DNA of 62,943 bases, filler included, from Catajapyx aquilonaris (taxonomy: Eukaryota): assembly GCA_000934665.2 (NCBI GenBank). It is 2 parts of 2 records of this genome, joined end to end, with 100 filler letters (N's around TTAATTAATTAA, not from the genome) between each part and the next. Parts side by side here need not be neighbours in the genome. Positions count along the whole stretch, not along the records: positions 31,523 to 62,943 come from KZ539164.1; 1 more part is not named here. The stretch is one strand, 5' to 3'. The translations under genes and the position numbers were made by a program. A model generated the notes under the pieces. The model was given only the letters and a program-made list of their open reading frames with translations, was not told the DNA's origin and searched no databases. Shown here one piece after another: positions 3,191 to 59,622 of this stretch (positions are counted from its first letter, which is position 1; each line of letters begins with the position of its first letter).

Positions 3191-3803
3191 ATGTCACATG
3201 TAGTCTGGATAAAACAGGAAGAGGCGGAGGAAGGGCCAGAGGAAGAAGAAGGAACAGTCACACTCCAGGGGACCTTGAAGGAGGAGACACCGTCTTGCTT
3301 TGATGGTGACTCTCCTCTCATACAAGACACTATTCCAGTGGTAAAACAGGAGCCAGAGGAGGAGGAGGAGGAAGAAATGGTGGTGGCCATGTCCAAGGAG
3401 GCTGAAGATGAAGATGACCCTTTGGCAGTTACATCCAGAAGGATTAAGCCGGTACGCAATCTGCTGTAGTCAGATGAAGACGTGGCTCTCAGGTGTATGA
3501 CAAGCTGCAATTATCCAATAAGTTATAACAATTTCACATACATGTTTTATTACCCAGGTTCAAAGTAGTGGGAGTGGCCACAATAAGCTACTGGTAATGT
3601 CGAACGAGGCGATACGAAAGAGGGAAGCCAGAGCCAGAGAGAGTGTAGAAGAGAGGAGAGCAAGACTGAAACAGCAGGCAAGAAGGCAAGCTGCTGCAAG
3701 AATGCGAGAAACCCCAGAACAAAGGATGGCACGACTTGAACGGGTGGCAGAGAGACGGAGAAAAAGGAGCAGTCGGAAAACACCTGAGGAGTCTTTGGTT
3801 TGA
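3191..3803 (+). CDS. Array unit 2: acidic DDPL exon plus truncated STPR-repeat exon
   Basis: Exons 3191-3451 (CCG|GTACGC) and 3558-3803 (CAG|GTT), phase 0. It carries the same premature TGA as unit 1 and may be a pseudogene. Confidence 0.65.
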
Positions 3804-12450: not shown

Positions 12451-14167
12451 ATGTCACAGGCAGTGTGGATAAAGCAGGAAGAGATGGAGGGAGAAGAAGA
12501 GGATGGAACAGTCACACAGCAGGGGACATTGGAAGATGAGACCCCTTCTTGCTTTGACGATGGCTCAACACTTATAGAAGACACTATTCTTGTGGTCAAA
12601 CAGGAGCCAGAGGAAGAGGAGGAAGAGATGGTGGTGGCCACGTCCAGGATGGTTGAAGATGAAGACGACCCTTTAGGAGTTGGTTCCAGAAGGATTTCCT
12701 GGGTACGCTGAAATCACAGAGAATTAAATCGAGTCTCTGTAGCTGTTTTCAATGAAACCTGTACATTTTTTGCTGACCTACTGTGTTATTTAATCTTGAG
12801 TAGTTTTGAATACCAATATGCTAATGTTCTCCTTCATGAGCTTCATGTGATCTTACATGTACAGTGCTGGACATATTAGCCGTCGCTGAATGTTTTTTTT
12901 CCTGCGGCGGCGGCGTTACCTGGCAACCCTGTCCGGAGGGCCAATTCAAACATCAGCCCATGGAGAGCGCTTCCATTGTTGCCACTGTTTACAAATCGAG
13001 TGAGTGACGCGGACGACCCAGCGACGGGTCTCTTCTGCCTGCGCACTCACTCACTCGATTTGTAAACAGTGGCAACAATGGAAGCGCTCTCCATCGGCTG
13101 ATGTTTGAATTGGCCCGCCGGACAGGGTTGCCAGGTAACGCCGCTGCCGCAGCCGCCGGAAAAAAACATTCAGCAACGGCTAATTTGTCCAGCATTGTAC
13201 GGTACGAACAACTATAGGTGCAGTTTTCCTATTACTGTAAAAAAATAATTCACATCCATGTTTTATTACATTTTAGGTTCCCGATGGCGGGAGTAGCCAA
13301 GACCTATTTGCAGGATCAAAGGAAGCGATACGAAAGAGACGAACCAGAGCCAGCGAGACTGCAGAACAGAGGAGAACGAGATTGCAAAAGGAAGCGGAAA
13401 GGAAAGATGCTGCAAGAAAGCGAGAAACTCCAGAACAGAGAAGAACAAGATTGCAAAAGGAAGCGGAAAGGAAAGCTGCTGCAAGAAAGCGAGAAACTCC
13501 AGAACAAAGGAAGGCACGACTTGCACAAGATGTAGAGAGGTGGAGGCAAAAGATAATACGGGAAACACCTGAGCAGGCTTTGGTTCGACGCCAAAAGCAT
13601 GCTCAGATTATTGCAAGAATGCGCGCTGTAAAATTCAAAGGCAGGAGCTTGATGCAGCAAGGCACGGGTGAATGTGGCAACGTCGGACCGGACTTGAACC
13701 GAAAAGAGTTTACGAACGTTCATACAGGAGAGAGACCATTTCAATGTGAGGTGTGTGAGAAAAAGTTTAAGAAAGCATATGAGTTAAAAGCTCATATGCA
13801 TGTTCATTCAGGAGAAAAACCATTCCGTTGCACAGTTTGTGAAAAGGAATATCTCTGGGGAAGTAGTTTGAGTAATCATATGAAAATACACACCGCAGAC
13901 ACACCAGTCACTTGCGAAATTTGCAAAAAGGAATTTACGCGGGGAAGTAGTTTGAGCAGTCATATGAAAATTCACACTGGAGAGGCACCGCCACACACTT
14001 GCGAAATTTGTCAAAAGCAGTTCAGGCAGAAAGGTAATCTGAATATTCATATGAGAACGCACACGGGGGAGAAACCGTACACCTGTAGATATTGCCAGAA
14101 GTCGTTTAGTCAGTCAGGTAGTATGAAGGTACACATGCGGATGCACACAGACGAAGAACCAACGTAA
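12451..14167 (+). CDS. Array unit 5: acidic domain + four STPR-like 23-aa repeats + 5 C2H2 fingers
   Basis: Exons 12451-12702 (TGG|GTACGC) and 13277-14167 (TTTTAG|GTT), phase 0. ETAEQRRTRL/ETPEQRRTRL/ETPEQRKARL/ETPEQALVRR occur at 23-aa spacing, then TGERP-linked fingers. Confidence 0.85.
12862..13197. mobile_element. Tc1/mariner-type MITE (near-perfect foldback)
   Basis: TA|CAGTGCTGGACA...TGTCCAGCATTG|TA with about 145-bp inverted arms and a short spacer. Confidence 0.9.
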
Positions 14168-14600: not shown

Positions 14601-15310
14601 ATGTCACAGGAAGTGTGGATAAAGCAGGAGGAGGGGAAGGAGGAGGAAGAAGAAGGAACAATCACAGTGGAGGAGACCGTCGAGGAGGACACCCCATCTT
14701 GCTTTCATAATGACTCTACGCATATGGAAGACACTATTCATGTGGTCAAGCAGGAGCCAGAGGAGGAAGAGATGGTGACCATGCCAGAGGTAGTTGAAGA
14801 TGGAGATGACCCTTTGGCAGTTGCGTCCAGAAGGATTAGTTGGGTATGTAATCTGCTGAAGTGTATGACAAGTTGCCATTACTTTCAACAATCTGTTTTA
14901 TTATGTAGGTGCCACAACCAGGGAGTAGCCAACACCTACTTGCAAAGGACATGATCCGAAAGAGACTAGCCAGAGCCAACGAGACTGTAGAACAGAAACG
15001 AGCAAGACTGCAAAAGCAAGCAGAAAGGCAAGCAGCTGCAAGAAGGCGAGAGACTCCAGAACAGAGGACAGCACGACGTGAACGAGATGTGGAGAGGTGG
15101 AGGCAGAGGATCGGTCGGGAAACACCTGAGCAGACTTTGGTTCGGCTACAAAGACATGCAGAGGCTCGTGCGAGAATGCGTGCTAGAGAATCACAAGACA
15201 AAAAAAGGCAAAGACAGGAGCTTGATGCAGCGAGGCATGCATTTTTGAGGCAACGTCGTAAACAAGCTGGAGGACTTGAACCGGCAGAAATGGCTTCCGA
15301 AAGAATATGA
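14601..15310 (+). CDS. Array unit 6: acidic domain + four STPR-like repeats, no intact fingers
   Basis: Exons 14601-14843 and 14909-15310 (65-nt GT-AG intron), phase 0. ETVEQ/ETPEQ/ETPEQ/ESQDK at 23-aa spacing. Decayed finger DNA at about 15303-15450. Confidence 0.8.
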
Positions 15311-25309: not shown

Positions 25310-28300
25310 ATGGCCTTGCTGCCCATGAGAGTCAAGGAAGAAGAAGGGCTTGATGGAGAAGAGGAGGACATCACAGTGGAGGAGACCTGGCAGATTCCCT
25401 TGAAGGAGGAGACCCCTTCTTGCTTCGATGACGGCTCTACTCTCATTGAAGACACCCTCCGTGAGGTCAAGAAGGAGGAGGAAGAGGAGGAGATGGTGGT
25501 GGACATGCCTGGGGTGGTTGGAGATGAAGATGACCCTTTATCTGTTGGTTCTGGAAGGATTAGTGGGGTATGCCATCTGCTTAAAATGTGAAGTAGGCCT
25601 ACCGTAATGTTGCCGTATGTGTGCTTCAGTCATGTGATGGATGGGGAGTATTACAAGAATTTTCCTTGCTCATTGGGGGAAGGGAGTGTTTGGCCCAGAT
25701 ATGTTAGCCCAGCTTTGGTGACCTACAGTTGAATCTGGATATATAACGGACTTCAAGGGACCGCGGGAAAAGCAGTCTGTTATACCCTAGTTCTGTTATG
25801 GCCAAATCGCCAATTTTGTAGTGAATACTCGAAGTTGTCTGCTTTCCATATGACTAGAATGCACACTACTACATGCTGATTAATGAAACTAAACATGCAA
25901 AATTAGCTCACCCATCACTTAGGCAGGACCAAAAAAAATCTGTAATTTTCTTCCACTGTCTCGTTCTTGCTAAATATACCAGAAAAAGGATGATTTTGAC
26001 CTTTTAGCTAAAGCGTTAGATCAGTGACAAATCTACTCCAGTGTGCAATGCTTTCCTCACGTGGGAAAAGAAGTTGAGTAATCAAAAACAGCACATTTTC
26101 CCACCGAGTGGCCAAGAAATGGTCTGTTATAGCCGAGGTGAGGTGAAAATGAGTTACCGCAGCACCACTTCGCCTCCTTATTAACTGTAATAAATTATTT
26201 TTATTACATGCAGAATATTGTCACTTTTCAGATTCTTTCTTGGATGGTAAACTGGACTTTTGGTATTTTATTTCTTAATCTCCCATTAACTAAATGCAGT
26301 TTGAGCCAAGCTAGGACAACATTTGTTGAAATGAACCAAATTTCATGCTAAAGGATGCTGATGTGAAAATTATTTACTATTAGTGTAATCATGAATTATT
26401 ATCAAATGTTGCATATTTTACCTGTTGAGTGATGTAAACAGATTGCTACTACAGTTGAATCCGGATATAACAGCCTCAGTTATAACGAACTTTCGGTTAT
26501 AACAGACTCAAAAGCCCAGTCCCAGCATACTTACATAAAGCCCCATGTATTTTTTTTACTCCTGATAGGCTATAGGAGACTCCTTTTCACCTCATCTCAG
26601 CTATGACAGACATTTCTTGGCCCTTTGGTGGGAAAATATGCTGCTTACGATTACTTAGCTTCCTTTCCCATGCCAGGAAAGCATTGCACATTGGAGAGGG
26701 GGGTGATATTCCATATGTGAGTGATATAAGCGCTCATTGACACTTGCAGAAAAGATCAAAATAATTATTTTTCAGGTAGCGTTTAAGTTATTTAGCAAAA
26801 AGGGAGAGAGCAAACTAGAAATACTCTTTTTTTTTGTCCTGCATAAGTTGTGGTGAGCTAATTTTGCAATTTTGTGGCTAGTTTCATTAATCAGTGTGCA
26901 GTAGTGCTCATTATTTGCATTTGGCAAGCAGAAAACTATTGTTGAAAAATTGGCGATTTGGCTATAACAGATGTCAGTTATTTCCTGTAATATGAATATC
27001 CCACCAAAAACATTTCTGTAAAAAAAGGCCAAGTTCTCCTGACTGCTGTCAAAAGTGGCGAGATCTGAAATACAGCCAAGTTCAACGTCGTTGTCAATTA
27101 CTGGCATTCTCAAATTATTCAACCTAAACCACTAACTTTGTTTTTCCAGGTCGACCTTAAGTTTAATCATCAAAAAATTTTAATGTAATTTCTCCTGATG
27201 TCACTTGACCATTGCTCTTAAAACAGTGAAACAGTTGTAGAATTCAACAATACCTCAGACATGAGCAATGACCAAGTGACATCAGGAGAAATGCCATTAA
27301 AATTTTTTGATGATTAAACTTAAGGTCGACCTGGAAAAATAAAATTAGTGGTTTAGGTTGAAGAATTTGAGAATGCCAGTAATGAGTACGACGTTGAACT
27401 TGGCCGTATTTCAGATCTCGCCACTTTTGACGGCCAAGCAGTCAGGAGAACTTGGCCTTTTTTTACAGAAAGTTTTTGGTGGGAACTCACCTCTTTTTGT
27501 AGGCAGGAGTGTAGGATAATTATGATAGCTCGGGGCCGGGCCCTACGGTTGGGCGTGGAAGCAATTGTCCGTATGTACAACTCTATCTTTTCTTCTGATT
27601 AGGTATGATTTTCTTCTGCTTTCTCATATTACGCTTCCTTTTTTTCTGTTCTGGTTGTGCGAATTGGACATCTGCTACACCTGATCCCATAGCCCATTCG
27701 CGATCCTTAACCACTTCTGTCGATGCCTTATTAGCCCTTTTGAGTATGGATAAGTCTGGTCGGTAAATAGATCTCAATCTATCGTACTCCAGAATAGCTG
27801 ACTCTTGAGCCTTGATGTCAGTAAAGGAGGCATTGATGAGATGCACTTTTAACTCTGGAAAGAGCCACGTAGGCTTGACCGCACGAGAAGACAGAGGAAC
27901 CAATATCGATGAGTACATTAGTGAGACTCAGCCTTGGCTCTTGTGTATGATAATTGCAAACGACAAAATGACGTGAGTTGTGTCGGGTAAAGGTGGTCCG
28001 GCAGTGCGGCGAGAACTTGGTGGGGGCACTGCCGTTGCCCCCTAATCTCTGTCGCACTGTGTGATGTGAGTGTGCTACAAATTCTGCAAGAGGTTTTGCT
28101 ATAAGCCACAAGGGGTGCCTTCTAAATGACCAAAACACATGCTGAAACCTTTCCTACATCCACCCTCCAATGGTAATTGATATGCTGCAATTCACTTTTC
28201 AGGTAGTGCAAAAGGATGACGATGAAGTATATGTGAAGGAAGGAGTTCAGAAGGAAAAGATCACTAGACCTCCTGATGGAAGCAAGCAATTTGACTGCCA

Positions 28301-31522: not shown

Positions 31523-32210
31523 TAGCAACACCCTTAAGACACTGACCCACCTGGTCCAACCATGTCTTCCTAGGCCTACCCTTGCCCCTCTTACCAACTA
31601 CTCCACCCAAATAAACCTTCTAGAATCACAAGCCATAATTTACCTATGTGTAATCTAACCAAACCAGCCAGCAGGCAAATCAAGCATATTCCTGTTTTAG
31701 CAATTTTGAGACAACCACAACTCTTGTCTAGGTATGAACTGATTGAATAATTGAACCTCGGAATTGGAAAACTTGAAAATGACTTGGCACTTATGCACTT
31801 GTTGCTCTGAGCCTCGCTGTACGCCAAACGGAGCATCGCAGGTGCACCAAACTCTGGTGGTAGGTGCGCCTGCCGAATCCATGACAATACAAGGTGTCAG
31901 GAATCCGATACGAGTAACGAGTGACGAATGGGAGCGGTGTCTTTGACCCCCCCCACCCTCTGGACACCCCCATAAAGTTAGTCTGTTTTCCGACTCCCAT
32001 GCGAGTTCGAGGCCACGTTGACCCCTCTGCAGGTCACAGTGATTGTCGCACCTGGATTTAAAAAATTTGGTCTTTTTCTTGCGGCGAATGCGTACCTATC
32101 CCCGGTATCACGGTACCGATAGCACAAACGAGTCAAATGCATTTTAGATCACCTTTGGCACCCAAGTCTATACCCCACCATCATGCAAACATGTCCAATC
32201 TTCATCTCAC

Positions 32211-32444
32211 CTGGTTCTTTCTTCCTCCATCTACAAGTCTGCGTCCACCGTCTGCCTCCTCCTCCCTGTCTGGATGAGCATTGTCACTTTCCTGGATGCT
32301 GGTGCCCTCCTCCTCCTCTGGCTCCACCTTGACCCTGTCCCACTTGGAGTGGGTGGTTCTGTGTGCCATCAGATCAATCCTCCTTTTGAAGACCTTATCT
32401 GGGCAGCACGGACAGGTGAACCTCCCCAATTTCAACATTTCCAT
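32211..32444 (-). CDS. First coding exon of a C2H2/acidic protein gene; remainder not found before the gap
   Basis: MEMLKLGRFTCPCCPDKVFKRRIDLMAHRTTH..VKVEPEEEE. Acceptor TTACAG at 32497, donor CAG|GTGAGA at 32210, upstream UTR donor GAAGG|GTGAGT at 32566, and AAATGGCG at about 32815. Confidence 0.7.
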
Positions 32445-33580
32445 GGCTGAAGGGATGGGGACGATGCGTCTCTCTCTCTCTAACTCTACACCTTGTCTGT
32501 AATAATAAGAAGAGTGAATGAGACTAGTCTCATGCCCCGCTCCAACCAGACCAACCTCCAACTCACCCTTCCTCCAACAATGAGTGGTGCGTGCGTGTGT
32601 CCTTCCCCCAACCAGACCAAGCAACAATCCCTTCCAAACCAGTGATTACCAGTCCTCTCCTCACGTGCCTCAACCTGCCTCAACCGCCCCCTCAACCGAC
32701 GGGCCATAAACAACCAACGCCATTACGCCAACTAGGCTGACTTCCTCCTTCCATCCCTTCAGATCGCCAACCACATAGTTTCCCTTCCCTCCGCCATGAG
32801 GGGGGAGTTATGGCGCCATTTCTTGGATGGTTTTGATCGGTTTTGATAGACACTAAAATTATGAAATAAAGACGATAAAGGTCATTCGCCAAATAAAAGG
32901 GTGTGGCAGGAAAAGATCAACTTTCCGGAGAGCGACAATGTTTCACTTGTGTCTGCACTCTGCAGCGGTCTGCAGGTTGCAGTATAGCCTACTAAACGAA
33001 GTCACTTTTATTGCTTTTATTGATTTCCTGTTTATTTAGAGGGGTTAGATGTAGGATAAAAAATAATATATAATTTACTTCTTAAGTATGAATACATTGG
33101 GGGTCCCAATACCTTCCGGACCATCGGGGCACAGTGGTCTATTATTTGCACAGGACAGTGTCTAAAATTTATTAAGCCAAAGTGATGCCACTACCTGTGA
33201 ATGTATTATATTATATTACTTATATATTACTTATATTACCAGAGAGTAGGCCTACCTGGCTACCTCCACCATGCCGAAAAATATTGGGTGCGTGTAGGTA
33301 TAACAAAAGCTCTTATATAAAAATTCAAACGTTCGAAAGTGGACCAGCGCTGTGCCCTGTGCCCCGGTCTCCCCTATGTGTAATTGGATTTAAATGTATT
33401 GACACTTTAAAGAATGCATAGATATTATTTCTCTGGTAATTATACTACGGTATGTGTTTTTATCAGGCTTTTTGCCGCCCATTCCAAATTTCCATAGGCC
33501 TAATAGTCTACACTCTACTGAAACACTAATTATTATTCTTCAGCACTTTTTTTTACCAGAAACTACGTCATGATGGTCAT

Positions 33581-34367
33581 ATGGCATCATCTTCCTTCCC
33601 AATCCTGGTGTTGACCCTCGCAGTCTCCATCGTCCAGCCATATCTCTATCTGGGCATCAGACTCCCTGCACCTGTCCCCCCGAGGCAATGCAACGGGTCA
33701 GTGTCTGCCCAGTGTCCCTCTGTGGACCCGACCCCGCCCGTGTACCTCCCCGACCCCTCGGACTGCCACCTCCTTCTGTGAGTGCAGCGGTGGCACCGCC
33801 TGGCACTTCCTCTGCCCTGATCACCTCGTCTTCCAGCCTGGAAAAGGCTGCGTCTTCCCAGACCAGTATTCCTGCCACCCATCAAACACCATTGACTTCC
33901 TCCTGATGGACACAGCACCCACCTACTGCCCCTCCTCCGTCCACTGCCCCAGCCAGGAGTCCAAGGACGTGGTCCAGCTGCCCAACCCGGAGGACTGCGC
34001 CTCCTTCTGCAAGTGCTTCCTGGGAAAGGCCTACCTGATGAAATGTCCAGGCAACCTCCTCTACAACCCAAAGATCAGGGTCTGCGACTACCCACAGAAC
34101 GTCCACTGCCAATCCCAGGAAGAGGAGCAAGATCAACTGGTGGTCATGGGTAATCAGAGGGTCAAGTGTCCCTCCAGAGTGTCCAAGCAGTGTCCCAAGG
34201 TGGAAGGACAGTACCCCAAGTACCTGCCCTACCCGGGTGAATGCCACGACTTCTGTGAATGCAGCAATGGCATTGCAAAGCGATTCTCCTGTCCAGGTGG
34301 TCTCATCTTCAATCCCAAATTGAATGGTTGCGACCATCCAGGAGACGCACTAATACCAATCGTATAA
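33581..34367 (+). CDS. Peritrophin-like secreted chitin-binding protein (3 CBM14/ChtBD2 domains), with a 1-nt frameshift
   Basis: Hydrophobic signal-like N-terminus and three C..LPxPxDC..FCxC..G.A....CP..L.F/Y....C domains. An extra C at about 33767 separates ORF 33581-33781 from the frame of 33906-34367. Confidence 0.85.
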
Positions 34368-37300
34368 ATTGTACATGCCTCATCATGTTTAATATTTATT
34401 GAGATATCTTCTATACCGTCATGCAAATGTATTATTTTATTTTGGAGATAAATGCTATTATGCTCATATAATAACCATAAGGATGAATTTATTTATTTCT
34501 GGTAAATAATAACCATTGCTGTCCACAAATACGGTAAGGCACATGTTCTCTTGGCAACTCCAGCTTGACCTGAGAAGGTAAATGTGTAAATAAGTGAACA
34601 ACACTGCAATTATTCCATCATCCTGATGACTGCTTTTTATTCAGCATTTTACTTTTGTCAAATTTGTACATTACAATACAGTCACTGTCCATTACTTGGG
34701 GCTATCTAAACTCCAAAAGCAGTTTATACACTACTATGGCAGACTGGCAGGGATGGGAAATTTTTATTTATTTATTTCAATTGTGGAGACTATTGGTGGA
34801 AGCGCTCTCTTTACATATCAAGGTGTGACAATATTTTCTCTGTGAGGGACTGGTTTATAAGAAATATCATGCATATTATTCACGTGATCCAGTTGTGGTA
34901 CTTGGTAGACTGTTTTTCTCTTGCTTTCCCATCCCTACGAGAAGCAAACATCAACTGTCCATCAAAATACCAAAAAAGATCTTTTATAAATAATTCCCTT
35001 TTTGTGTGTACAAAACATCCTCATTGTTGCTGAAAAATACAAAGTTTCGGCACTAAGAAGCCATTGAGATACAATTATCACATTGGGGCTAACTTTCACT
35101 TTCCATTTTTATTATTACTTATCATTTACTAGCATCCTCTTCTTTTTTTTCTTATTCTTCTTCGTCAAATTAATACTCGTCGAACACATTTTTCTTTTTC
35201 TACAAGTAGACAGAATAATTTTTTTTTATTCGTATTCCGAAATATTCAGTCCAAAATGACCAAAATAAAAAATTGGATGGGCAAATTTGTCGCTCATATA
35301 TACTTTTTTTGTTCGTCTCCTTTGAAAAACATTGGCCGTCACCAAAAAAAGTTGCACTTTTTGTCACAAAGAAATACTTTCCTAAACTGTGAAGACAATT
35401 TTTTACCACATAATTCTTACTGCATTATTTTTTTTCCCTTCCTCCCACTACTTCCTACTACTGTACAATAAATATAATTTTGGCATAGCTGTATCAGTGG
35501 AACATTAAGGCCATGTTAACAAAGTTTTGTACAATGAAAGCATTTTTCACACCTACTGTCATTCACAGGCACATTTTTGTGATGTCACGTGTGGCATCAC
35601 GTGACATCTCTTAGCTCCTATAAGATACTTCAGCACACAAAAAATTAAGCCTTTTTAAAATCCGACTTCCTATCTACTTCAGTACTACAGTACACTGAGA
35701 CCATTAGACCACAAAATGTCCCATAAATGACATAAGGAGAGGTGGGCTGGGGGTGGGAATATGGGGCACGGGGTGCAGGAAAAGCACAACTGATTTTTTT
35801 TGTATTGTTTTCTTATATCACACTGGTCTACTGCTTGTTGATTAAAACTTCACACCTACTGTTTTACTTATGTGTCTATCACTTTGCAAAGCTAACTATT
35901 CAAACTATCTATTCACAACTGGATTTAGGTGGGATTTTTTTTTTCATCAGATCTGACCCTTCTTATTCATTTACTTATATTTATAATGTTCAAGTTCTTT
36001 TCTCCTAGTACTGTTTGTGTGGAGATTATGTGTAGCACACTACTCTTAAGCTAGAGAAATAACTGAGCATTAGCATACCCCTGACAGAAAGTGCCAACCG
36101 GCTAACGGTTGCATTATTATTCGGCAGGGTCTAATATCTCGAGATATTTCTCTACTCTTTCAACTGTGGTGAGGCTATAACTGGATATTGTAATCTTATT
36201 TTTACATATAATCTGCTGTGGACTTTCACCATTTCATTTTATTGTAGCATGTATGTCAAAATAATTAAAATTTCAAATGATAACAAACATCTAGTCTGCA
36301 ATGATTTCCTGTTTTAAAACAGTACATCCAAAGCACAACAAAAATGTGTGGTACTAAATAAGAAAGGCTATAAATATACTTTCCAAATAAATATTTTCAC
36401 TCTTCCAAATTACTTATTCAGCACACAGTTTGGATAAGGATGGCGCTTGTGTGACTTGCTCATTATTGCAGCATGTGTGATTATCTTTTCCAAAATGACT
36501 TAGAGATCAGACTCTTCTGCATACGATGGAAGACAGGACGCGGATTTCATGAAGTGCAAAAAATCATTGGTTGCCTGTTCATTTATAAATTTGTACTTGA
36601 ATTGCATTTATTAGAGTCAACAATCTCAGCTGACAATATCAGATTTATCTTTGTATTGGAGAAGACAATCACTACAAGTCTGATAAATTTCCCTTTCAAT
36701 GTACCATCTCCTATTTTTTTTAACCTCATAAATATATTTGAAAATTTGTGGAAGAATGAGTATTTTGTAAATAATTGGCACATTTCTATAAAATAAATAG
36801 GCCTATCTAAATATATATAATAATAATTATGGCAGTTAAACCGGAGTATAAATGATCTACACCGTAGAAGAAAACATACAGAACACAAAACTTAATACTT
36901 TGTTGCAACGTTATGCAACATTACATATTGCAGTCTACATTATTTTAGTTTCAGAAAATAAAGGAAAGTAGAATTTTTAAGAGTTTGTAAATTTCTTGGT
37001 CCAAACCATCACTGGACAAAATAAAGAAGTTTTGCTTTCACTATCTCTTTTCTTTGGAACAATAAGATTTACTGCTGAACAAGATTATTCCAGAAGTAAA
37101 TCTCAATATAGGAAAAAAAGAGTTCTGAAGAATTAACACAAGATAAAATAACTATCATCGAATACAAAATCACATTCAAATACAGAATTGCACTAATAGT
37201 ATAAAAATAAAGTACAGTACTAAAATCACAAAGAAAAATCACAATTTTATGTCGATAGTTTGGACTCCATTTTTGCACTTTTAGAAGTTGCAGTCGACTC

Positions 37301-39545
37301 ATAACCTCTCCAGAGGTCTATTCTATTACTTGATCTGCATAATCATTCAATGAATAAATGGGAGGTTTACATGCAGAAGGATAATAAATATAAATAATAA
37401 TAACACATATCAGCTGCAACGTAACTCACATCACCTTCCTGTTCAACGAAATTGTCCTATATGCATAGGGGATGAGGTTGCACTATGTTAGTAAAGCTGG
37501 ATGGAATTACGTCTACTGCTGCAACTTTAAACATGTATGAAGCAACACAAGCTATTACGAGGCAAGGAGTAATGATGCTGATCGCCTGTGATTGACAAAT
37601 ATTTCAGTGGTACTGGTACTTGAAATCTAACAGCATTCTGTGTAACAAATGTTTTGAAAGATATATATTTATGGCTTTGTAGAATTTTACAAAATGTGAG
37701 TACTAAAGAATTTGTTTGCTCTTATGAGTTTAACCTACTCAACTTCAATCATTATTGTTTCATGTTCTTACACGTACCATGGTTGAATGTCACACATGAA
37801 CATTTCTGTCATCTTCTAATGGCACTTTAATTATAATCAAGGTTTTAAAATAACAAGTAAATGCCCACATATGCATAGAGTCTGCAGCAATTGCAACACA
37901 TTAAAAAATATATGTTTATCAGTCATCAGGTGGACGAGCATCATTACCAAACAGCACATAATCCATAGTACTTCAGGTACTGGCAACAGGACACACATAC
38001 ATCACAAAATAAACAAAACTGCAGTGTTCCTGACAGCTCAGAAGCTGTGGCTCTTAACATATAATCACAACCAATAAAGCAATGAAAAATACTTAGGGAG
38101 CAAGGGTTTTTTTTTCACTCGACCAAATGAAGTCGAATTAATAAAAAATCAGGTACACGAAGCAAAATAATGGCACTGGAACCAAGGTGGAGACGCAATA
38201 ATATCGACTACAAATCACAAAATTGGCATGTATATAAAGAAAAGATGGCAACGTGAGATCTTTTCATTGCATTTTTAAAAAATCGTCAGTTCAAACTTCA
38301 TCTTGCATTAAGCGAGCAATTAGGCAAGTTACAGCTCCTCAATAAATAACATAATCTGGTGGTAAGCGCCACAGCTCATGAGCCGATTTAGTTTAAACTA
38401 GGAAACGTGAAGTCTGCAGTAAACGAAAAAAAAAAAAAACGCATACGTTATGTTTCCCTGTGAACAAAATCTACGCCCACACTGTGTTAATGAACTCAGA
38501 TACAAGTTGGGATGGTTCTGGAGTTATGTAGTTTATCCACTATTGTTGATGATCAGTCTTTGTCTGCGCAGTTATTTTTCTCTTTTGTGAATGTCTTGTC
38601 TCTTATATCTTCTCTTCTTTTCCTTCTTTTTATTCTGTCAAACACAGCCTTCACTTTTCATTTGGCCAGTTGGTGCTATGCTATATTTTTTAAAACAAAT
38701 TTTCAAAAAAAAAAAAAACATCATTTGAGATCCATAGTGTCAGTCGCTTCACAATACTTGTCACTATCACTTCTCTGTTGAATCACTTTTAATCCACTTA
38801 CAAAAAAAAAATCCTGGACAATTGCGACTTCCAGTTCTCATGTGTCCACTTTCTAGACAATGAAACGTTGCGTGCATGTTACGAAACACTTTCAGCACAA
38901 ATTCACCTTGCACTAGTCACTTTTTGTCTGTGCACCTATACTTTTATTTTAAAACGGGTATTCACTTATCTACTTTTTTGCATAAATAATTTCTTCTTGG
39001 GGTGAGAGTTGGTTTTGTCTCTGGTTTTTCAACAGTGACTGGCAAAAAGTTTGTACTGCGTTAAATATTTTTTTTGCATAAGATCACATACTATACTTGT
39101 GCATTTTCTGGCGATGACCTCCCAAAAAAAGAGCCACTCATTCTCCGAAAAAACTTTCTTGTTGACTGCCCACAGTTTGTGCTCATAATTTCATCTTCCA
39201 TACATGGAGGGGAAAACGATTATTGGGATGGGATATCGAAAATCCTTTGTATAAAATGGCTGGCTTTAAATTCTCCGTTTTGAAAATAGGCGCCTGCCAG
39301 TTATTTTTATACAAATTTAACTGTTATCACAAACTCTTGTTTTAAATGGACAGTTGGACAGTGAATTGGAAAGACTGCATTTTTTTGCCATTTTTCTCCT
39401 GCTCACAAATATCTCCATAAATAAGCTTGCCTCCTCCTTTGTACCACTTGCAGTCTCATTTTGACAAATGGAAGTTAGTGGTTTCTGCATCTCTTAAGGG
39501 ATAGGTCCCAAATGGATTTGAAATTTTGCCCACTATGTATTTGTC

Positions 39546-40094
39546 TTACGGTTGGAAGCTGTTGCTCCCTGGAGGCCGGTCATCTGAATCGGATGCCCGG
39601 AAGCTGTAGTTGTATGGCCTGTCTGTGGTCAGGTCTGTGGGGTCGTTGTTGCCTGATGCAGCTGTAGCTGTGGCTGCCAAGCGACTGAAGCTGTAGTTGT
39701 ATGGGTTACCTCCAGGATGGGCTGGATCAGGCTCGTAGTTATTCTGCCGCTCACCTCCACCACTTCGCTCAGAGGTGCCACTTGTGGAGCTGCGTCCACC
39801 TGGACTCACGCTGCTGGCACCAGATCTGGATGTCGGCCGGTTGTCTGCTCCATCACCACGGAAGAAGTAGTTAGTTCCACTATTGGGAAAGTACATTGGA
39901 GGTGGGTAATAACCTCGAGTACTCCCTGGTGGAAAGTAACTGTTGTTTCCAGGGCTGGCGGGAGGGAGATATGTCGGGCTGGGGCTGGACGGTGGGAAAA
40001 ACTGCGTGTCTGACCCTTGCCTGGCCGTGTCCGACTGCCGAGCTGTTTCTAACCTTGCTGCATCAGGATTGGCTGTCCGGAAGTTCCGTCCTAG
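39546..40094 (-). CDS. mamo: Putative stop-codon readthrough extension (182 aa) of the distal BTB-ZF isoform
   Basis: In frame with 40095-41018 and stop-free from CTA at 40094 to TAA at 39546-39548. The stop context is TGA CTAG. Confidence 0.7.
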   Translation of the reverse strand, partial: LGRNFRTANPDAARLETARQSDTARQGSDTQFFPPSSPSPTYLPPASPGNNSYFPPGSTRGYYPPPMYFPNSGTNYFFRGDGADNRPTSRSGASSVSPGGRSSTSGTSERSGGGERQNNYEPDPAHPGGNPYNYSFSRLAATATAASGNNDPTDLTTDRPYNYSFRASDSDDRPPGSNSFQP

Positions 40095-41018
40095 TCAGGA
40101 ATGAGTTGTCAGGTGTTTGGACAAGTAGTCGGCGCGTGCAAAGTTTTTCCCGCACGCAAAGCAGTGGTAGGGCCTCTCCCCAGTGTGCGTCCTCATGTGA
40201 CGAGTCAGGTCGCTCTTCCCTCCAAATGCCCGCCCACAGAATTCACATGGGAATGGCCTTTCTCCAGTGTGTTTCCGGACATGCAGCTTCAGGTTTTCCT
40301 TGGTGCGGAAAGCCTTGTGACAAAACGGACATATGAAACCATTGGTAAAGTCTGTGCCAGTGTGATGCAACAGGTTGATCAGAGGAGACATGGCGGGAGT
40401 AGGGCGGTAATCAGGTGACTGCGATGGTGATGGGCCTGAGGCAGGACCTGGAGTAGGACCTGCAGGAGAGGATGTGCGTGGCTGGGTGGCTGCTGTGAGG
40501 GCAGCCAGCAATGATGATGATTCTGCAATGGCCGACTGTATATCAGGCGGGGGTGGCTTTGGGTCACCCTGAGGCTGAGGCATCATACCAGGTGGCAAGA
40601 ACTCGCCTCGGTAAGCATCAGGAAAAGCAGGCGTCCCATTCTGGCACTCTGAGCCAGACACAGTCCCATCCGACTCCCCACCATTCTCACACTCCATCCC
40701 AACAAAATTGGGGCCAGGGGTGGCACCTGGATCCCTCTTGACCATGCCAGGGATGTCCCGATGAAGGCGCTCCAATGTGTGGTTGAGGCGGTGCTTCTTG
40801 AAGGACTTGAGGTACTTGAACTGCATCCCACACAGGTCGCAGTGGAAAGGCTTCTCCCCTGGCAAGCGCGCCATGTGGTTCTGCTCCTTGTGCTTGAAGT
40901 AGGCTGACTGGTACTTGTAGCACTGGCCGCACTGCTCACACTTGTAGGGCTTCTCACGAGCATGCAGCTCCAGGTGCTGCTCCATCAAAGAGATGGTCGG
41001 GAACTGGGCTAGACACAC
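40095..41018 (-). CDS. mamo: BTB-ZF gene, distal isoform terminal exon (completes 6 C2H2 fingers)
   Basis: Acceptor CCCAG|GTG at 41019. VCLAQF..HLELH completes the finger begun by IKCQ in the previous exon, and five more fingers follow. Confidence 0.88.
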   Translation of the reverse strand: MCLAQFPTISLMEQHLELHAREKPYKCEQCGQCYKYQSAYFKHKEQNHMARLPGEKPFHCDLCGMQFKYLKSFKKHRLNHTLERLHRDIPGMVKRDPGATPGPNFVGMECENGGESDGTVSGSECQNGTPAFPDAYRGEFLPPGMMPQPQGDPKPPPPDIQSAIAESSSLLAALTAATQPRTSSPAGPTPGPASGPSPSQSPDYRPTPAMSPLINLLHHTGTDFTNGFICPFCHKAFRTKENLKLHVRKHTGERPFPCEFCGRAFGGKSDLTRHMRTHTGERPYHCFACGKNFARADYLSKHLTTHS

Positions 41019-43450
41019 CTGGGCAACAGTGGGTATTGCATATACCCAGGGGCTTGCTTTCTCTATTTGGTTCGAGGAGGGTAGGATTTGATATTTGGCT
41101 TGTTCAAATGAAAACATGAAGAGAGTGCAGCTGGTAGTTAAAATCATGGGAAGTGTCCATAAACTATCCTGCAGTCCAGATTCGATTCGATTATACAATA
41201 CATGGAAAGCTTACTTTTCTCTCCCAACATCATTAGGTTAATAAACAGGCAATTCATACTGTATATTCTTCAACTCTGTGTGAGATAAATCAATGATAAC
41301 AATTTTTGTCAGTTTATTATTCTTAATACACTTGAAAAGATTCTCTTGAAAATTTTATTAAGGAGAAATGAATTGGAATATGTGCATATAATATGAATAT
41401 TTATGGAATACCACCAATGATTTTATTCTTTAACTGCATTGTAAGATTTAACTCTCTCTTTCTCTCTCTGTCCGATGAAGGAAACTTTAAAAAAAATTAT
41501 TATTCAGTGACATAATTATGCCATTGTTACTCTTGGTCCCATAAATTGCAATTTTAATATTAGCGCAAAGATGAGGTGTCAGTGTGTGAGAAGATACATT
41601 ACAGAGCAATATATTTATATTTGAATTTTGATCAACAGGATAATTATCAATTTTTCCTGAACTATACATAGCCATTTGATAACAATAATATTTCATTGCA
41701 CACATATCATATCAGCATTTTTATAATCACATTGATTTCAAGTATTTAAAAATGTTAGCTACTCAGAGCGCAACAGAAAAATAAGAAACATTAGATGCAT
41801 CACTTTGGAATGTGCCTCTGCATAAGACAGTCAGTAATTAGTGATTAGCTCTTGGTGATAGTGACCTTTACCAAGATTCCAGCCCTCAGGGAGTTCCCAT
41901 ACTCTCTACAGAGAAGTCGTTCATACTGTACGTTTGTGACTGAATTGCTAATTTACCATGCCATGAAGTCATGAAAGCCACAGAATCTCTTTTAATGATT
42001 AAAAACCAATTTGTAGACATACAGTTATTCATTTGTATACCCTAGCTCCAGATATCACAAGTTGGAAGCAAGCGAGAAGGAACTGCAATTGGCAGTTGGA
42101 AACACAGGCTTCTGACAAGAAATTAAGGCTGGTGTTCTTCTTGAAAGGACCATGTGCACAATGAAATATTAACAAGCCAAATATCATGATGGTAGGGGTG
42201 GAAGAGGTCATGGCAATGGTCAAAACAGTGGCAATGATGGAGATCTCATGCAATTCATGGAATTGATCATCTAACAAATTATATTCTTAGAGTGAGTAAC
42301 GCAAAGGCCCGGCAGTGTCTTCCTCCATCACAGGTAACTACCAATTTGCATGATAATTTCTTCCCAATAGTGAGTTTGGAAGGATGGAAGAAAGGGGCAA
42401 GTAACTGCTATTGCTAAATTACTTTAAATTGATACATAGGAAATAAGTTACTGTAACCCCACAATGACTGTTTCTTCTTTTACAGTTGCTTTTATAGTTT
42501 GAGAAAAAATACTTTTGCACAATTTTAAAATGTGATAGTCACCATTCTGGGACTGAAGTTGCCTAAAGCAAACCCAAATTGCTTGCACAGTTCTTTGGAA
42601 TGGCAATGGGTGGACTGCGAAGACGGAGTTTAAACAGCGGCTCAGTTGGATTGCGTGGCAACTTTGCAATCCACCCAATGAGTACAAGGTTGTGCCTTTC
42701 AGACTGGACATAATTTACTTCTCAAATGCAGGTAATTTTTTAAATATCACTTATTACCATCATGGTTATATCTCTTACCCCATTTCAGGAAACATAATAG
42801 AATATTATTCTCCCCTTTTCCTCATTATTCTCTCCAGTAGAGAGCCAAGGCAACTATGGATTTTAAAAACCACCACAGAACTGTCCTGGAAGAGGCAGGG
42901 GGAAGCCATACCTATGAAACTTCCACATCACAGCTGCGACACACAATAATATTGCACTTGGACAGTACTGGCGTTGAACAAAAATAATGTCCAGTTCTAT
43001 AAGAATGGACATTTTTAAATAAGTTCCACTTGCATTTTATCATTTCATAAGCCAATTAACCACCATCAATGCCACTGTATGCTAACTTTTCGAACCGAAA
43101 GCTTTGTGAAATACTTTATTACTAAAAATATTTAAGTATCAAATCAAATGGATCAACCAAGCAAGGCACCTATGACTTTGGGGGAATTAGAGCATCTTCC
43201 CAGAAACAGGGGACAAATGTACAAAAAAAGTATTTGGTTGTCAAGGCCCAGAAGGGCAATTCACCTTGACGTGTTTGTCCTCTCATCCCTGTCTCACCTT
43301 CCACATGCACACAATAAATAAGATGCAGCGCACACTTATTCACAATGTTCTATGATAAAATTGGAACATACAATGACACTCTCACTTTCTTCTGAATGAA
43401 CCTTGTGTGCCATATTTCTGGGAATGACACTGCCATGACATTCAGCTCAC

Positions 43451-43930
43451 CTGGCATTTTATAGCAGAGGTTGGGGAGAGTGCGGATGCTGTGGCAGTGG
43501 CAACACTACCATCCTCAGCCGCCTCGCTGGGAGTGGGCGAAGTCACAATCTGCCCCCCGCTACCACCGCTACCACCCCCTCCTCCGCCCCCACTGCTCTG
43601 GCCCATGAAGAAGCGGCTGAGCTGCTCCTGCTGCAGAAGAGCCAACAGTGTACTGTCCTGGGAAAGGGCAGCCAGGTTTCCAAATGGGAATCCAAAGGGC
43701 ATCGGAGGGGCCATTGGGTGGTGGTGCTGACCCATGTGTGGTCCTGGGGTTGGAGGCTGCGGGAGTGCAGGAGTTGCAGGTGCAGATGTTGCGGGAGGGA
43801 GGGAAGGAGCAGGGGAACACACATCCTCATGCGTGTCCGAGTCGGAGTCTGAAGTGTCCTCACCACCACCTTTGTGTTGCGGGGAGCTGAAGCTACCCTC
43901 AATTATCTGGACTTCTGCTTCCAAGAGGTT
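43451..43930 (-). CDS. mamo: BTB-ZF gene, distal isoform internal exon (low complexity, ends in half a finger)
   Basis: TTGCAG|AAC acceptor and TGCCAG|GTGAGC donor; 480 nt, phase 0/0. Confidence 0.85.
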
Positions 43931-53394: not shown

Positions 53395-54075
53395 TTATTG
53401 CTGTGATTGCGTAGATTGCGCGTCGACCGCTGCGCTGACAGGTGGCGGCAGAAACTTCTTGACATACTTTGGGTAGTGTGTCTTCTCGTGGGCCTTGAGT
53501 ATGGTGCTCCTGCTGAACGTCTTTCCACATAGGGCACACTTGAACGGCCGCTCTCCTGTGTGGACCCGCGCGTGATCCTTCATATGATGGCGAAGCTTGA
53601 ATGCCTTTCCGCAGAACTCACACTTGAAAGGCCGGTCTCCCGTGTGGACTGGGAGGTGCTGGATGAGTGAGGAGACATCCGGGAAGCTCTTCCCACAAAA
53701 CTTGCAGAGGACCACGTTCGACTGCCCTTCGTTACCGGTGCTGAAGTCCACCTCCACCGGTTGTAGTGGTGGAGGTGGCGGTGGTAATAGTGATGCGGCT
53801 TCATATATATCCTGGGCCAGGTTCAGTGCTTCGAGTTTCACCAGCGGGGGTGGTGGTTGCTGCGGCGGTGGTGTCAACGGAGGTGGGGGAATGGGAGGTG
53901 GTAGGTGTTGTTCGCGGTACTTGAGCGTTTCGAGGCTGTGCGATAGGATGTGTCGCGTCAGCTTGCTCTGGCTTGGGAAAGAGTGCCCGCAGTACATGCA
54001 CGGGTATGTGGAAGCGGTAGTAGTGGTAGCAACGGGCGACCGCAAGTGAGACTGATCCCCCACCTCGGCGGGCTC
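53395..54075 (-). CDS. mamo: BTB-ZF gene, proximal alternative terminal exon (4 C2H2 fingers)
   Basis: TTTGCAG|GAG acceptor, phase 0. Fingers YPCMYC, VLCKFC, FKCEFC and FKCALC, then a TAA stop. Confidence 0.88.
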   Translation of the reverse strand, partial: EPAEVGDQSHLRSPVATTTTASTYPCMYCGHSFPSQSKLTRHILSHSLETLKYREQHLPPPIPPPPLTPPPQQPPPPLVKLEALNLAQDIYEAASLLPPPPPPLQPVEVDFSTGNEGQSNVVLCKFCGKSFPDVSSLIQHLPVHTGDRPFKCEFCGKAFKLRHHMKDHARVHTGERPFKCALCGKTFSRSTILKAHEKTHYPKYVKKFLPPPVSAAVDAQSTQSQQ

Positions 54076-55942: not shown

Positions 55943-56041
55943 TTGATCTGGAAGCTCTCGAAACTCGGAACTCTCCCCAGTGTTGCTTCTCTCATCACCT
56001 CCTCCCACCTGCCGATTCCAGTCAGTCTCTTTCTTCAGTGA
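55943..56041 (-). CDS. mamo: BTB-ZF gene, small common exon (33 aa; not in ORF track)
   Basis: TTTTGCAG|TCA CTG AAG AAA GAG ... GAT CAA|GTAAGT, encoding SLKKETDWNRQVGGGDERSNTGESSEFRELPDQ, phase 0/0. Confidence 0.8.
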
Positions 56042-58770: not shown

Positions 58771-59622
58771 CAGTGGTGCATGTTGAATCTGAGAGGCCAT
58801 CCCCGAGGGTCCCGGCATGGGGTCGCTTCCTCCTCTCTCCACCACCACCCCCCTCTCCATCCTGTCTGGCCCTCCCCTCTCCCTCTCTCGCTCTACACTT
58901 CCTCCGGTAACACTTCTCGGTGAAGAGGGAACTGTGGGGGTGTCGCTTCGCATTGATGCCTCTTCCATCGCCATGCTGTCCTCCCCATCAGTGCTCTCCC
59001 CCGAGTCGCTGTGCGGCCCTGTGTTTCCTGACTGTGGCGGGGGTGGCTTCAGCCGCAGTCGCTTTGCATGTGACTGTGGTGACATATCCCTGGGGATGTC
59101 TTCCCCGAGCCTCTTGTCACCACCAGAAGAGGATGCCGTGGAGCTCCCAGAAGACATTTGCAGCGCTCCCTGACCACCCCCTGATCCACTCCCCGGCCCT
59201 GCCCCTGCCCCTGTGGTGGCAGACAGGTCAGCTGGTGCATCTGCTGCCTGATGGTGGTGCACCCCAGTCATCTCGGCCAACCCCTTGACCTTGAGGCTCT
59301 CAGCGGTCTTGAGCAGGGTGCTCAGCTGGCTGTACTCAACGTTGACCTCACCCTTATACATGAACTCGAGCAGTATCTTGAGTTCAGCGTATTTCATGTC
59401 CTTCAGGATCACGATGGGATGCCTGTCCGGGTGGTCGGTGAACAGGCTCTGGAAGTAGGAGGAGCACGCGGAGAGGACCACCTTGTGGGCGCGGACGGAG
59501 GGCCCGGCATCGCAGGCCAGGGTGACGTCCACCAGGGACTCGTCCTGGAGCAGCTGGCTGAACACGCCCAGGAGGTTGCTCTGGTGATTGTTCCACCTCA
59601 GGCAGTAGTGCTCACTGCCCAT
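58771..59622 (-). CDS. mamo: BTB-ZF gene, first coding exon with ttk-type BTB/POZ domain
   Basis: MGSEHYCLRWNNHQSNLLGVFSQLLQDESLVDVTLAC..AHKVVLSACS..LKTAESLKVKGLA matches my recollection of the Mamo N-terminus (symbol not verified by search). Contains a PADLS motif. Donor CTG|GTACAC, phase 0. Confidence 0.9.

Follow-up and report, generated by a model that had tools for sequence, protein, structure and literature searches.

A candidate UGA-CUAG readthrough extension in the long form of a mamo-type BTB-zinc-finger gene of Catajapyx aquilonaris

Readthrough of stop codons, a mechanism that is itself already known, has been listed for several genes of the BTB-zinc-finger family. In data S1 of Jungreis 2016 (PMC5100048), the Drosophila rows fru-RH, fru-RF, br-RC, and chinmo-RD have extensions of 187, 72, 131, and 236 codons, respectively, and AGAP000080-RB, the Anopheles counterpart of fru-RH, has one of 412 codons. 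The same data set has no rows for lola, ttk, ab, and bab1, and none for mamo by name or under three identifiers, an entry under another identifier being possible. For Drosophila mamo, a 2026 preprint (PMC13278127) lists transcript FBtr0346001 in its tier 2, which holds about 1,080 rows, as a readthrough candidate called by three of three classifiers; its first stop is TGA, and its 36-nt extension is fully conserved at the protein level and has few stop-spanning reads. The 4,662-nt open reading frame of this transcript, compared with dipteran lengths, suggests that it is the long form of mamo with the distal zinc-finger end (ZF-B).

More generally, abundant readthrough is reported for insects and Daphnia, crustacean abundance being predicted from Daphnia genome statistics, and readthrough is described as gained and lost in old genes (Jungreis 2016, PMC5100048). 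In bumblebees, 851 candidates were reported (PMC7826183). With respect to sequence context, UGA-CUAG readthrough is described for the vertebrate genes OPRL1, OPRK1, AQP4, MAPK10, and MDH1 and was measured at about 3.5-31% in human genes (Loughran 2014, PMC4132726). In that study, positive coding scores are reported for only 4 of 23 human UGA-CUAG genes, so that the motif alone is no proof of readthrough. With respect to RNA structure, the long-range 3′ stems of alphaviruses and Drosophila kelch are reported to have spacers of 7-12 nt and loops of 101-268 nt (PMC3159437). Our literature search, which covered a minority of subscription journals, revealed no gene-level readthrough case for a crustacean, none for a long mamo tail, and no work on a crustacean mamo.

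Here we describe a mamo-type gene in a 62,943-nucleotide stretch of DNA from C. aquilonaris (assembly GCA_000934665.2), referred to as the window. The distal isoform of this gene ends at a UGA followed by CUAG, and its frame stays open far beyond the stop. We consider it a good, well-formed readthrough candidate on the evidence of a single genome.

The mamo locus and its first stop

The product of the BTB exon (Pfam BTB match, E 4e-26) matches insect proteins with 81-87% identity across the domain for nearly all 120 BTB matches listed, among which four insect proteins bear the name mamo. By type of 3′ end, the 120 matches listed divide into 57 that carry the proximal end (ZF-A) at >75% identity, 59 with the distal end (ZF-B), and 4 with neither. 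These matches bear out the original prediction, which had called the gene mamo-like with two alternative 3′ ends; by sequence comparison, it is a mamo orthologue with both conserved zinc-finger ends. Joining the exons in phase 0 (Table 1) predicts forms of 543 aa for ZF-A, 784 aa for ZF-B, and 967 aa for ZF-B with readthrough, the linker exon giving the first Cys of a finger that is completed by the next exon. The long and short open reading frames of silkworm mamo are reported as 2,397 and 1,824 bp (PMC11001300), and isoforms and function of mamo are treated in PMC6764822 and PMC6868150. The first fingers of the window protein share 74% identity with mayfly proteins and no more than 68% with other insects, whose values are exceeded by a divergent orthologous metagenome locus (L014) with 87% identity across 45 residues; no named crustacean mamo occurred among the matches listed. 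This pattern suggests a non-insect or basal pancrustacean.

Table 1 Features of the mamo locus, in positions of the window (a slash marks an exon junction)
Feature	Position	Strand	Remarks
BTB-coding exon of mamo	58771..59622	-	284 codons from ATG; donor CTG/GT, phase 0
Small common exon (33 codons)	55943..56041	-	Predicted; frame stays open from AG to GTAAGT; phase 0 on either side
Proximal alternative 3′ exon ZF-A, short mamo-S-type form	53395..54075	-	Ends TAA-T
Linker exon of distal form	43451..43930	-	160 codons; ends KCQ/
Distal 3′ exon ZF-B, long mamo-L-type form	40098..41018	-	307 codons to ...HLTTHS
First stop TGA, at orthologous C-terminus	40095..40097	-	After ...HLTTHS ending 40098
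CTAG 3′ context; also possible phase-1 splice acceptor CTAG/GA	40091..40094	-	
4-bp hairpin CGGA-ACT-TCCG	40078..40088	-	Not significant
11-bp perfect long-range helix, 5′ arm	40057..40067	-	Starts 28 nt after stop
11-bp helix, 3′ arm	39652..39662	-	394 nt between arms
In-frame extension, 182 codons	39549..40094	-	Ser/Pro/Gly/Asn/Tyr/Phe-rich; without Lys, Ile, Cys, Trp
Tandem TARQSDT / TARQGSDT repeat	40005..40046	-	Codons 17-30 of extension
Five aromatic-x-Pro-Pro/Asn motifs (FFPP, YLPP, YFPP, YYPP, YFPN)	39882..40001	-	Four precede ATG
Sole in-frame ATG, start of annotated 116-aa ORF	39894..39896	-	
PYNYSF copy 1	39687..39704	-	
PYNYSF copy 2	39600..39617	-	DNA identical to copy 1
PTDLT	39627..39641	-	
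Second stop TAA	39546..39548	-	Coincides with GC change point

The C-terminal motif ADYLSKHL[TS]TH is present in 83 of 235 proteins examined. The protein end follows it after 4-13 residues in 82 of the 83 and after 36 residues in one; the window mamo ends 1 residue past the motif and locus L014 ends 2 past. Judged by these proteins, the TGA sits at the ancestral stop position. The sequence HLTTHS TGA CTAG had been predicted for the end of the distal isoform and was found there, and the leaky context claimed for it is now placed at the orthologous stop. The UGA is followed directly by CUAG, as in the UGA-CUAG class, and local composition gives an expectation for CTAG of 0.4% of positions. With 9 matches in the window vs 5.9 expected, TGACTAG as such is no rarity and matters only because it is located at the gene's stop.

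One scan yielded 17 orthologous metagenome loci of about 7 distinct kinds, 13 of them with a readable stop; four loci without the C-terminal motif were left out of the stop-context count. None of the 13, among which there is no close relative, has TGA-CTAG or a long second frame: their stop contexts are TAA-C, TAG-C, TAG-A, TAA-A, TGA-A, and TGA-C, and their second frames span 1-45 codons. Since both the context and the long tail are absent from 13 of 13 loci, readthrough would be lineage-restricted if real, and on this comparison the long tail is not pan-arthropod. A search for orthologous DNA returned no viral contigs, no genome contigs, and no close relative. No homologue of the tail was found among 490 candidates of 100-319 aa, in 1.84 billion representative proteins, or at E<0.6 in the 17 orthologous loci, and the Atlas gave no usable match; such blank searches show neither novelty nor absence. 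In two loci (L012, 3740-3915; L013, 4203-4378), insect mamo extends some 60 sense residues beyond TTH and includes a long run of Ala, from which it follows that the mamo C-terminus can move; L004 runs 15 residues past TTH. The divergent L014 ends TGA-CAG (1565) and has an AT-rich second frame of 33 codons, and in L001-L003 about 100 nt of GC-rich UTR follow the stop.

Further features were observed along the gene and elsewhere in the window. Retention of the intron behind the linker exon (43442-43451) would stop the frame two codons on (KCQVS) and give a finger-less form; a BTB-only variant of fly mamo is on record (PMC6764822 / PMC6868150). The first AATAAA past the second stop lies at 38943..38948 on the minus strand, and there is none within 41018-39546. 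A Peritrophin-A chitin-binding gene (PF01607, E 1e-24; 33615-34367, plus strand) converges on the 3′ end of mamo, and an open reading frame with a single atypical finger (CPCC...H..H; 32202-32645, minus strand) has no Pfam match. On the plus strand at 1100-31400, we found a tandem cluster of about 10 related C2H2 zinc-finger genes, which consist of two parts each and begin with an acidic exon (IKQEE...PLAV.S.RI); behind some of these first exons, an intact finger exon is missing. The cluster contains STPR repeats (PF21107, E 1e-9 to 7e-5) at 3522-3803, 13277-13600, and 14909-15310, one of which is in frame with a finger array. A fragment at 27818-28153 on the minus strand has no Pfam match and contains GQAYVALSRV, which we take to resemble a Pif1/Helitron helicase motif. 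No tRNA was found in the window.

Coding signatures and repeats of the second frame

Past the TGA, exactly 182 open codons follow before the frame closes with TAA. This length agrees with the original prediction, as does the joining of the separate 116-aa ORF, which is opened by the only ATG in the frame. The other two frames of the extension contain 4 and 10 stops and those of the opposite strand 5, 7, and 3, and when the extension itself was shuffled, the frame stayed free of stops in 60 of 20,000 dinucleotide and 28 of 20,000 mononucleotide shuffles. The extension (GC content 0.57) is as GC-rich as the exon (0.56), whereas the 546 nt that follow the TAA have a GC content of 0.37; the abrupt turn to AT-rich sequence past the second stop is present as had been claimed. 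When 40700-38800 was scanned, the best single GC change point was 39548 (support interval 39526-39567), with a log-likelihood gain of 35.5 compared to 9.4 at the TGA. Its coincidence with the second stop partly follows from the openness of the frame, because AT-rich DNA soon yields a stop. At the ZF-A end, the second frame has just 18 codons after TAA-T and GC falls at once from 0.56 to 0.39, in agreement with the claim that only one of the two 3′ ends has a coding-like tail. Both GC-rich terminal exons that the window has besides ZF-B show a drop in GC at the first stop (0.56 to 0.39 and 0.52 to 0.31), eight genes of the zinc-finger cluster being too AT-rich to inform this comparison; ten control second frames in the window span 1-53 codons.

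We further scored codon usage after training on mamo exons, with held-out true exon parts and real 3′ UTRs as controls. The extension scored 29.0 in frame vs -1.8 and -48.1 in the other frames, a value reached in none of 10,000 shuffles, while four held-out true mamo exon parts scored 8.4-30.1 and two real 3′ UTRs peaked at 4.1 and 9.0. The signal is distributed over the extension, with 12.5 and 16.5 for its halves and 7.7 for the 66 codons preceding the ATG. A test restricted to synonymous codons was weak, with 6.6 in frame vs 8.4 in frame +1 for one background and 6.2 vs -0.3 for the other. GC3 of the extension is 0.53, which is below that of the zinc-finger and BTB exons (0.63-0.71). The residue make-up gave a chi-square of 121 vs a null maximum of 38 in 7,000, the other frames giving 43 and 63; I, L, V, M, C, W, H, and K together number 8 vs 47.7 expected, and Y and F number 21 vs 6.6 expected. 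Overall, the extension looks built like protein-coding sequence in the TGA frame only. These coding signals mean that the frame is or was translated and say nothing on how it is entered. They begin upstream of both the ATG and the pyrimidine-rich AG sites at 39984-39954, which indicates entry at or near the stop. For top-tier Drosophila extensions, depletion of Leu, Lys, and Ile together with disorder is reported, as well as depletion of Asn and Phe (PMC13278127); the depletion of Asn and Phe does not fit the window tail.

The tail has no Pfam family, and its aromatic residues are spaced by Gly, Ser, Pro, and Asn, which suggests a low-complexity interaction region. The TARQSDT and TARQGSDT copies share 7 matched residues, a number that none of 3,000 shuffles equalled. 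One whole codon and five single changes separate the copies; all five changes are synonymous, where 26% synonymous would be expected for single changes. The aromatic-x-Pro-Pro/Asn motifs, a pattern chosen after seeing it, use differing codons. General repeat counts were borderline (172 of 5,000 shuffles for runs of at least 4 and 1,202 of 5,000 for runs of at least 3).

Two motifs had been over-read. PYNYSF is present twice as predicted, but as identical 18-nt copies 87 nt apart; because the copies do not differ in DNA, the pair is explained by DNA duplication and is silent on protein-level selection. The extra PxDL[ST] motif also exists in the form of PTDLT, which we take to be a CtBP-type motif, and PADLS occurs in the BTB exon; 197 of 20,000 residue shuffles contain a motif of this type, which again is a pattern picked once it had been noticed. 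We rejected a PPxY motif in the tail (PPMY) as chance, as 3,652 of 20,000 shuffles contained one. A 60-nt in-frame self-match that spans the TGA was observed between 40120-40061 and 39640-39581 (480-nt spacing, 34 of 60 positions identical, 6 of 300 shuffles). A duplicate of the former gene end may have given rise to the far part of the tail.

Readthrough and its alternatives

Functional, programmed readthrough of the long ZF-B form of Mamo is in our view the best explanation for these observations, and a probable one. For most ribosomes, translation would end at the UGA, with the 784-aa BTB-zinc-finger protein as the product. The CUAG context would slow release, allowing a near-cognate tRNA to decode the UGA occasionally, and leaking ribosomes would continue for 182 codons to the UAA and make the 967-aa form. 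This product, confined to the long form, would have unchanged DNA-binding fingers and a low-complexity, aromatic-studded tail. Such a mechanism presupposes that the region is contiguous in the mRNA and that readthrough is the route into the extension. We expect that the tail would be disordered and would alter cofactor binding, stability, or condensate behaviour and not DNA specificity.

Structure in the RNA adds a weak new lead to this reading. The small hairpin that had been predicted behind the stop exists, but it is no better than chance, with z from -0.17 to +1.13 in five windows folded around the stop, and we rejected a role for it. The lead is the 11-bp long-range helix (Table 1), which has pair probabilities of 0.96-1.0 in the whole fold. 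An 11-bp inverted repeat occurred anywhere in 14 of 1,000 codon shuffles and with an arm within 40 nt of the stop, a limit set post hoc, in 1 of 1,000. The fold of the whole extension had a z of -1.12, and 12 of 100 shuffles were as good.

The main rival to readthrough is splicing, which we consider unlikely. The extension would be an alternative coding exon spliced in at CTAG/GA (40090, phase 1), with loss of some fingers and omission of the TGA, from a donor that is either a cryptic site inside the ZF-B exon or part of an unseen upstream exon. Splicing accounts for the CTAG and for an open frame that begins right there, and the putative acceptor appears passable: it has 12 pyrimidines of 20 (5 T), similar to the real ZF-B acceptor (12, 6 T), no further AG occurs in the 22 nt ahead of it, and CTGAC, a word like the branch-point consensus, lies about 20 nt upstream. 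Three other inspected mamo acceptors are more pyrimidine-rich, however, with 14-17 pyrimidines and 10 T, and use of CTAG/GA would make the acceptor overlap codons of a conserved finger. On the donor side, eight phase-1 GT sites in the ZF-B exon fit 4-5 of 7 consensus positions, but with three of the eight, the best scorer among them, the junction would itself read TGA. Each of the three real upstream donors is in phase 0, and joining them to 40090 leaves only 13 codons readable. In addition, the tail is matched by none of the 120 BTB matches listed.

Should the TGA be an error in the sequence or a nonsense allele of recent origin, with the 182 residues as the normal C-terminus of the lineage, every coding signal would be accounted for. 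C-termini in the family can indeed lengthen, as in L012, L013, L004, and the one protein that runs 36 residues past the motif. Against this stands that a random error or new nonsense change needs two coincidences, as the lesion must hit the ancestral stop position and precede CTAG, and that the tail is borne by no protein on record. We therefore regard this explanation as improbable.

There is also only a slight chance that the stretch is now untranslated 3′ UTR, be it a relic of coding or readthrough or a GC-rich UTR that is open by chance. The missing conservation in distant orthologues, the lower GC3, and the GC-rich UTR of L001-L003 would fit, and candidates such as this one are picked out of many genes. 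On the other hand, several partly independent frame-specific signals each go beyond thousands of shuffles, 546 nt contain neither stop nor frameshift, and GC falls at the first stop in the other two GC-rich terminal exons of the window.

Recoding of the UGA by selenocysteine or A-to-I editing, UGA being the codon for both, or separate production of the 116-aa ORF from its existing ATG is very improbable, as we found no Rfam match at E<=1 in 34400-41500 and no SECIS-like element in a crude home-made pattern scan, a SECIS search having been proposed in the original prediction as a check against selenocysteine, and as orthologues are without Cys at the UGA position, the stop lies outside any long duplex, and the coding signal begins well ahead of the ATG.

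Relation to described readthrough systems

Readthrough of the long form could be part of a more far-reaching scenario, which we put forward as a speculation with a small chance of holding as a whole. The leaky stop would be old, as represented by the short conserved tail in the fly, and the 182-residue tail made within the lineage, built de novo from 3′ UTR via small duplications. This tail would be of an aromatic sticker-and-spacer type with a CtBP-type motif, gated by UGA-CUAG together with a long-range helix whose distance is unusual. Following alternative splicing, readthrough would constitute a second switch, by which a DNA-binding form becomes corepressor-recruiting or condensate-forming in chosen tissues. 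In this scenario, readthrough would stand out as a device that recurs across the whole family of BTB-zinc-finger fate genes, also outside insects.

mamo is a regulator of neuronal fate, germline, and pigmentation. If readthrough at this locus is real, 19% of the length of one form is absent from the annotation, in which the 116-aa ORF wrongly stands as a separate gene. mamo would then take its place next to fru, br, and chinmo among the BTB-zinc-finger genes whose long readthrough is bound to an isoform, and the locus would provide a clean case for the birth of a disordered tail from UTR.

Compared to the described systems, the vertebrate genes OPRL1, OPRK1, AQP4, MAPK10, and MDH1 share the identical seven-base context with the window mamo; they differ in that their motif is reported as conserved across vertebrates and their readthrough as measured by reporters (PMC4132726). 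The helix of the window resembles those of kelch and the alphaviruses in its 11-bp stem, which falls in the 10-14-bp range, its large loop, and its location 3′ of the UGA, whereas its spacer of 27 nt lies outside 7-12 nt and its loop comprises 394 nt. The fly transcript FBtr0346001 belongs to the same gene and likewise has TGA as first and TAA as second stop, but its extension is 36 nt compared to 546 nt here, and its row is not flagged as conservation-based. The fru, br, and chinmo cases are backed by multi-species PhyloCSF evidence, have the contexts TGA-T (fru-RH), TAA-G, and TAG-G, and concern different paralogues. They are like the window mamo in that they come from the same gene family and have a long second frame of similar length after the zinc fingers of one isoform. 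Overall, we consider it likely that the window mamo belongs with fru, br, and chinmo and works as these genes do in readthrough.
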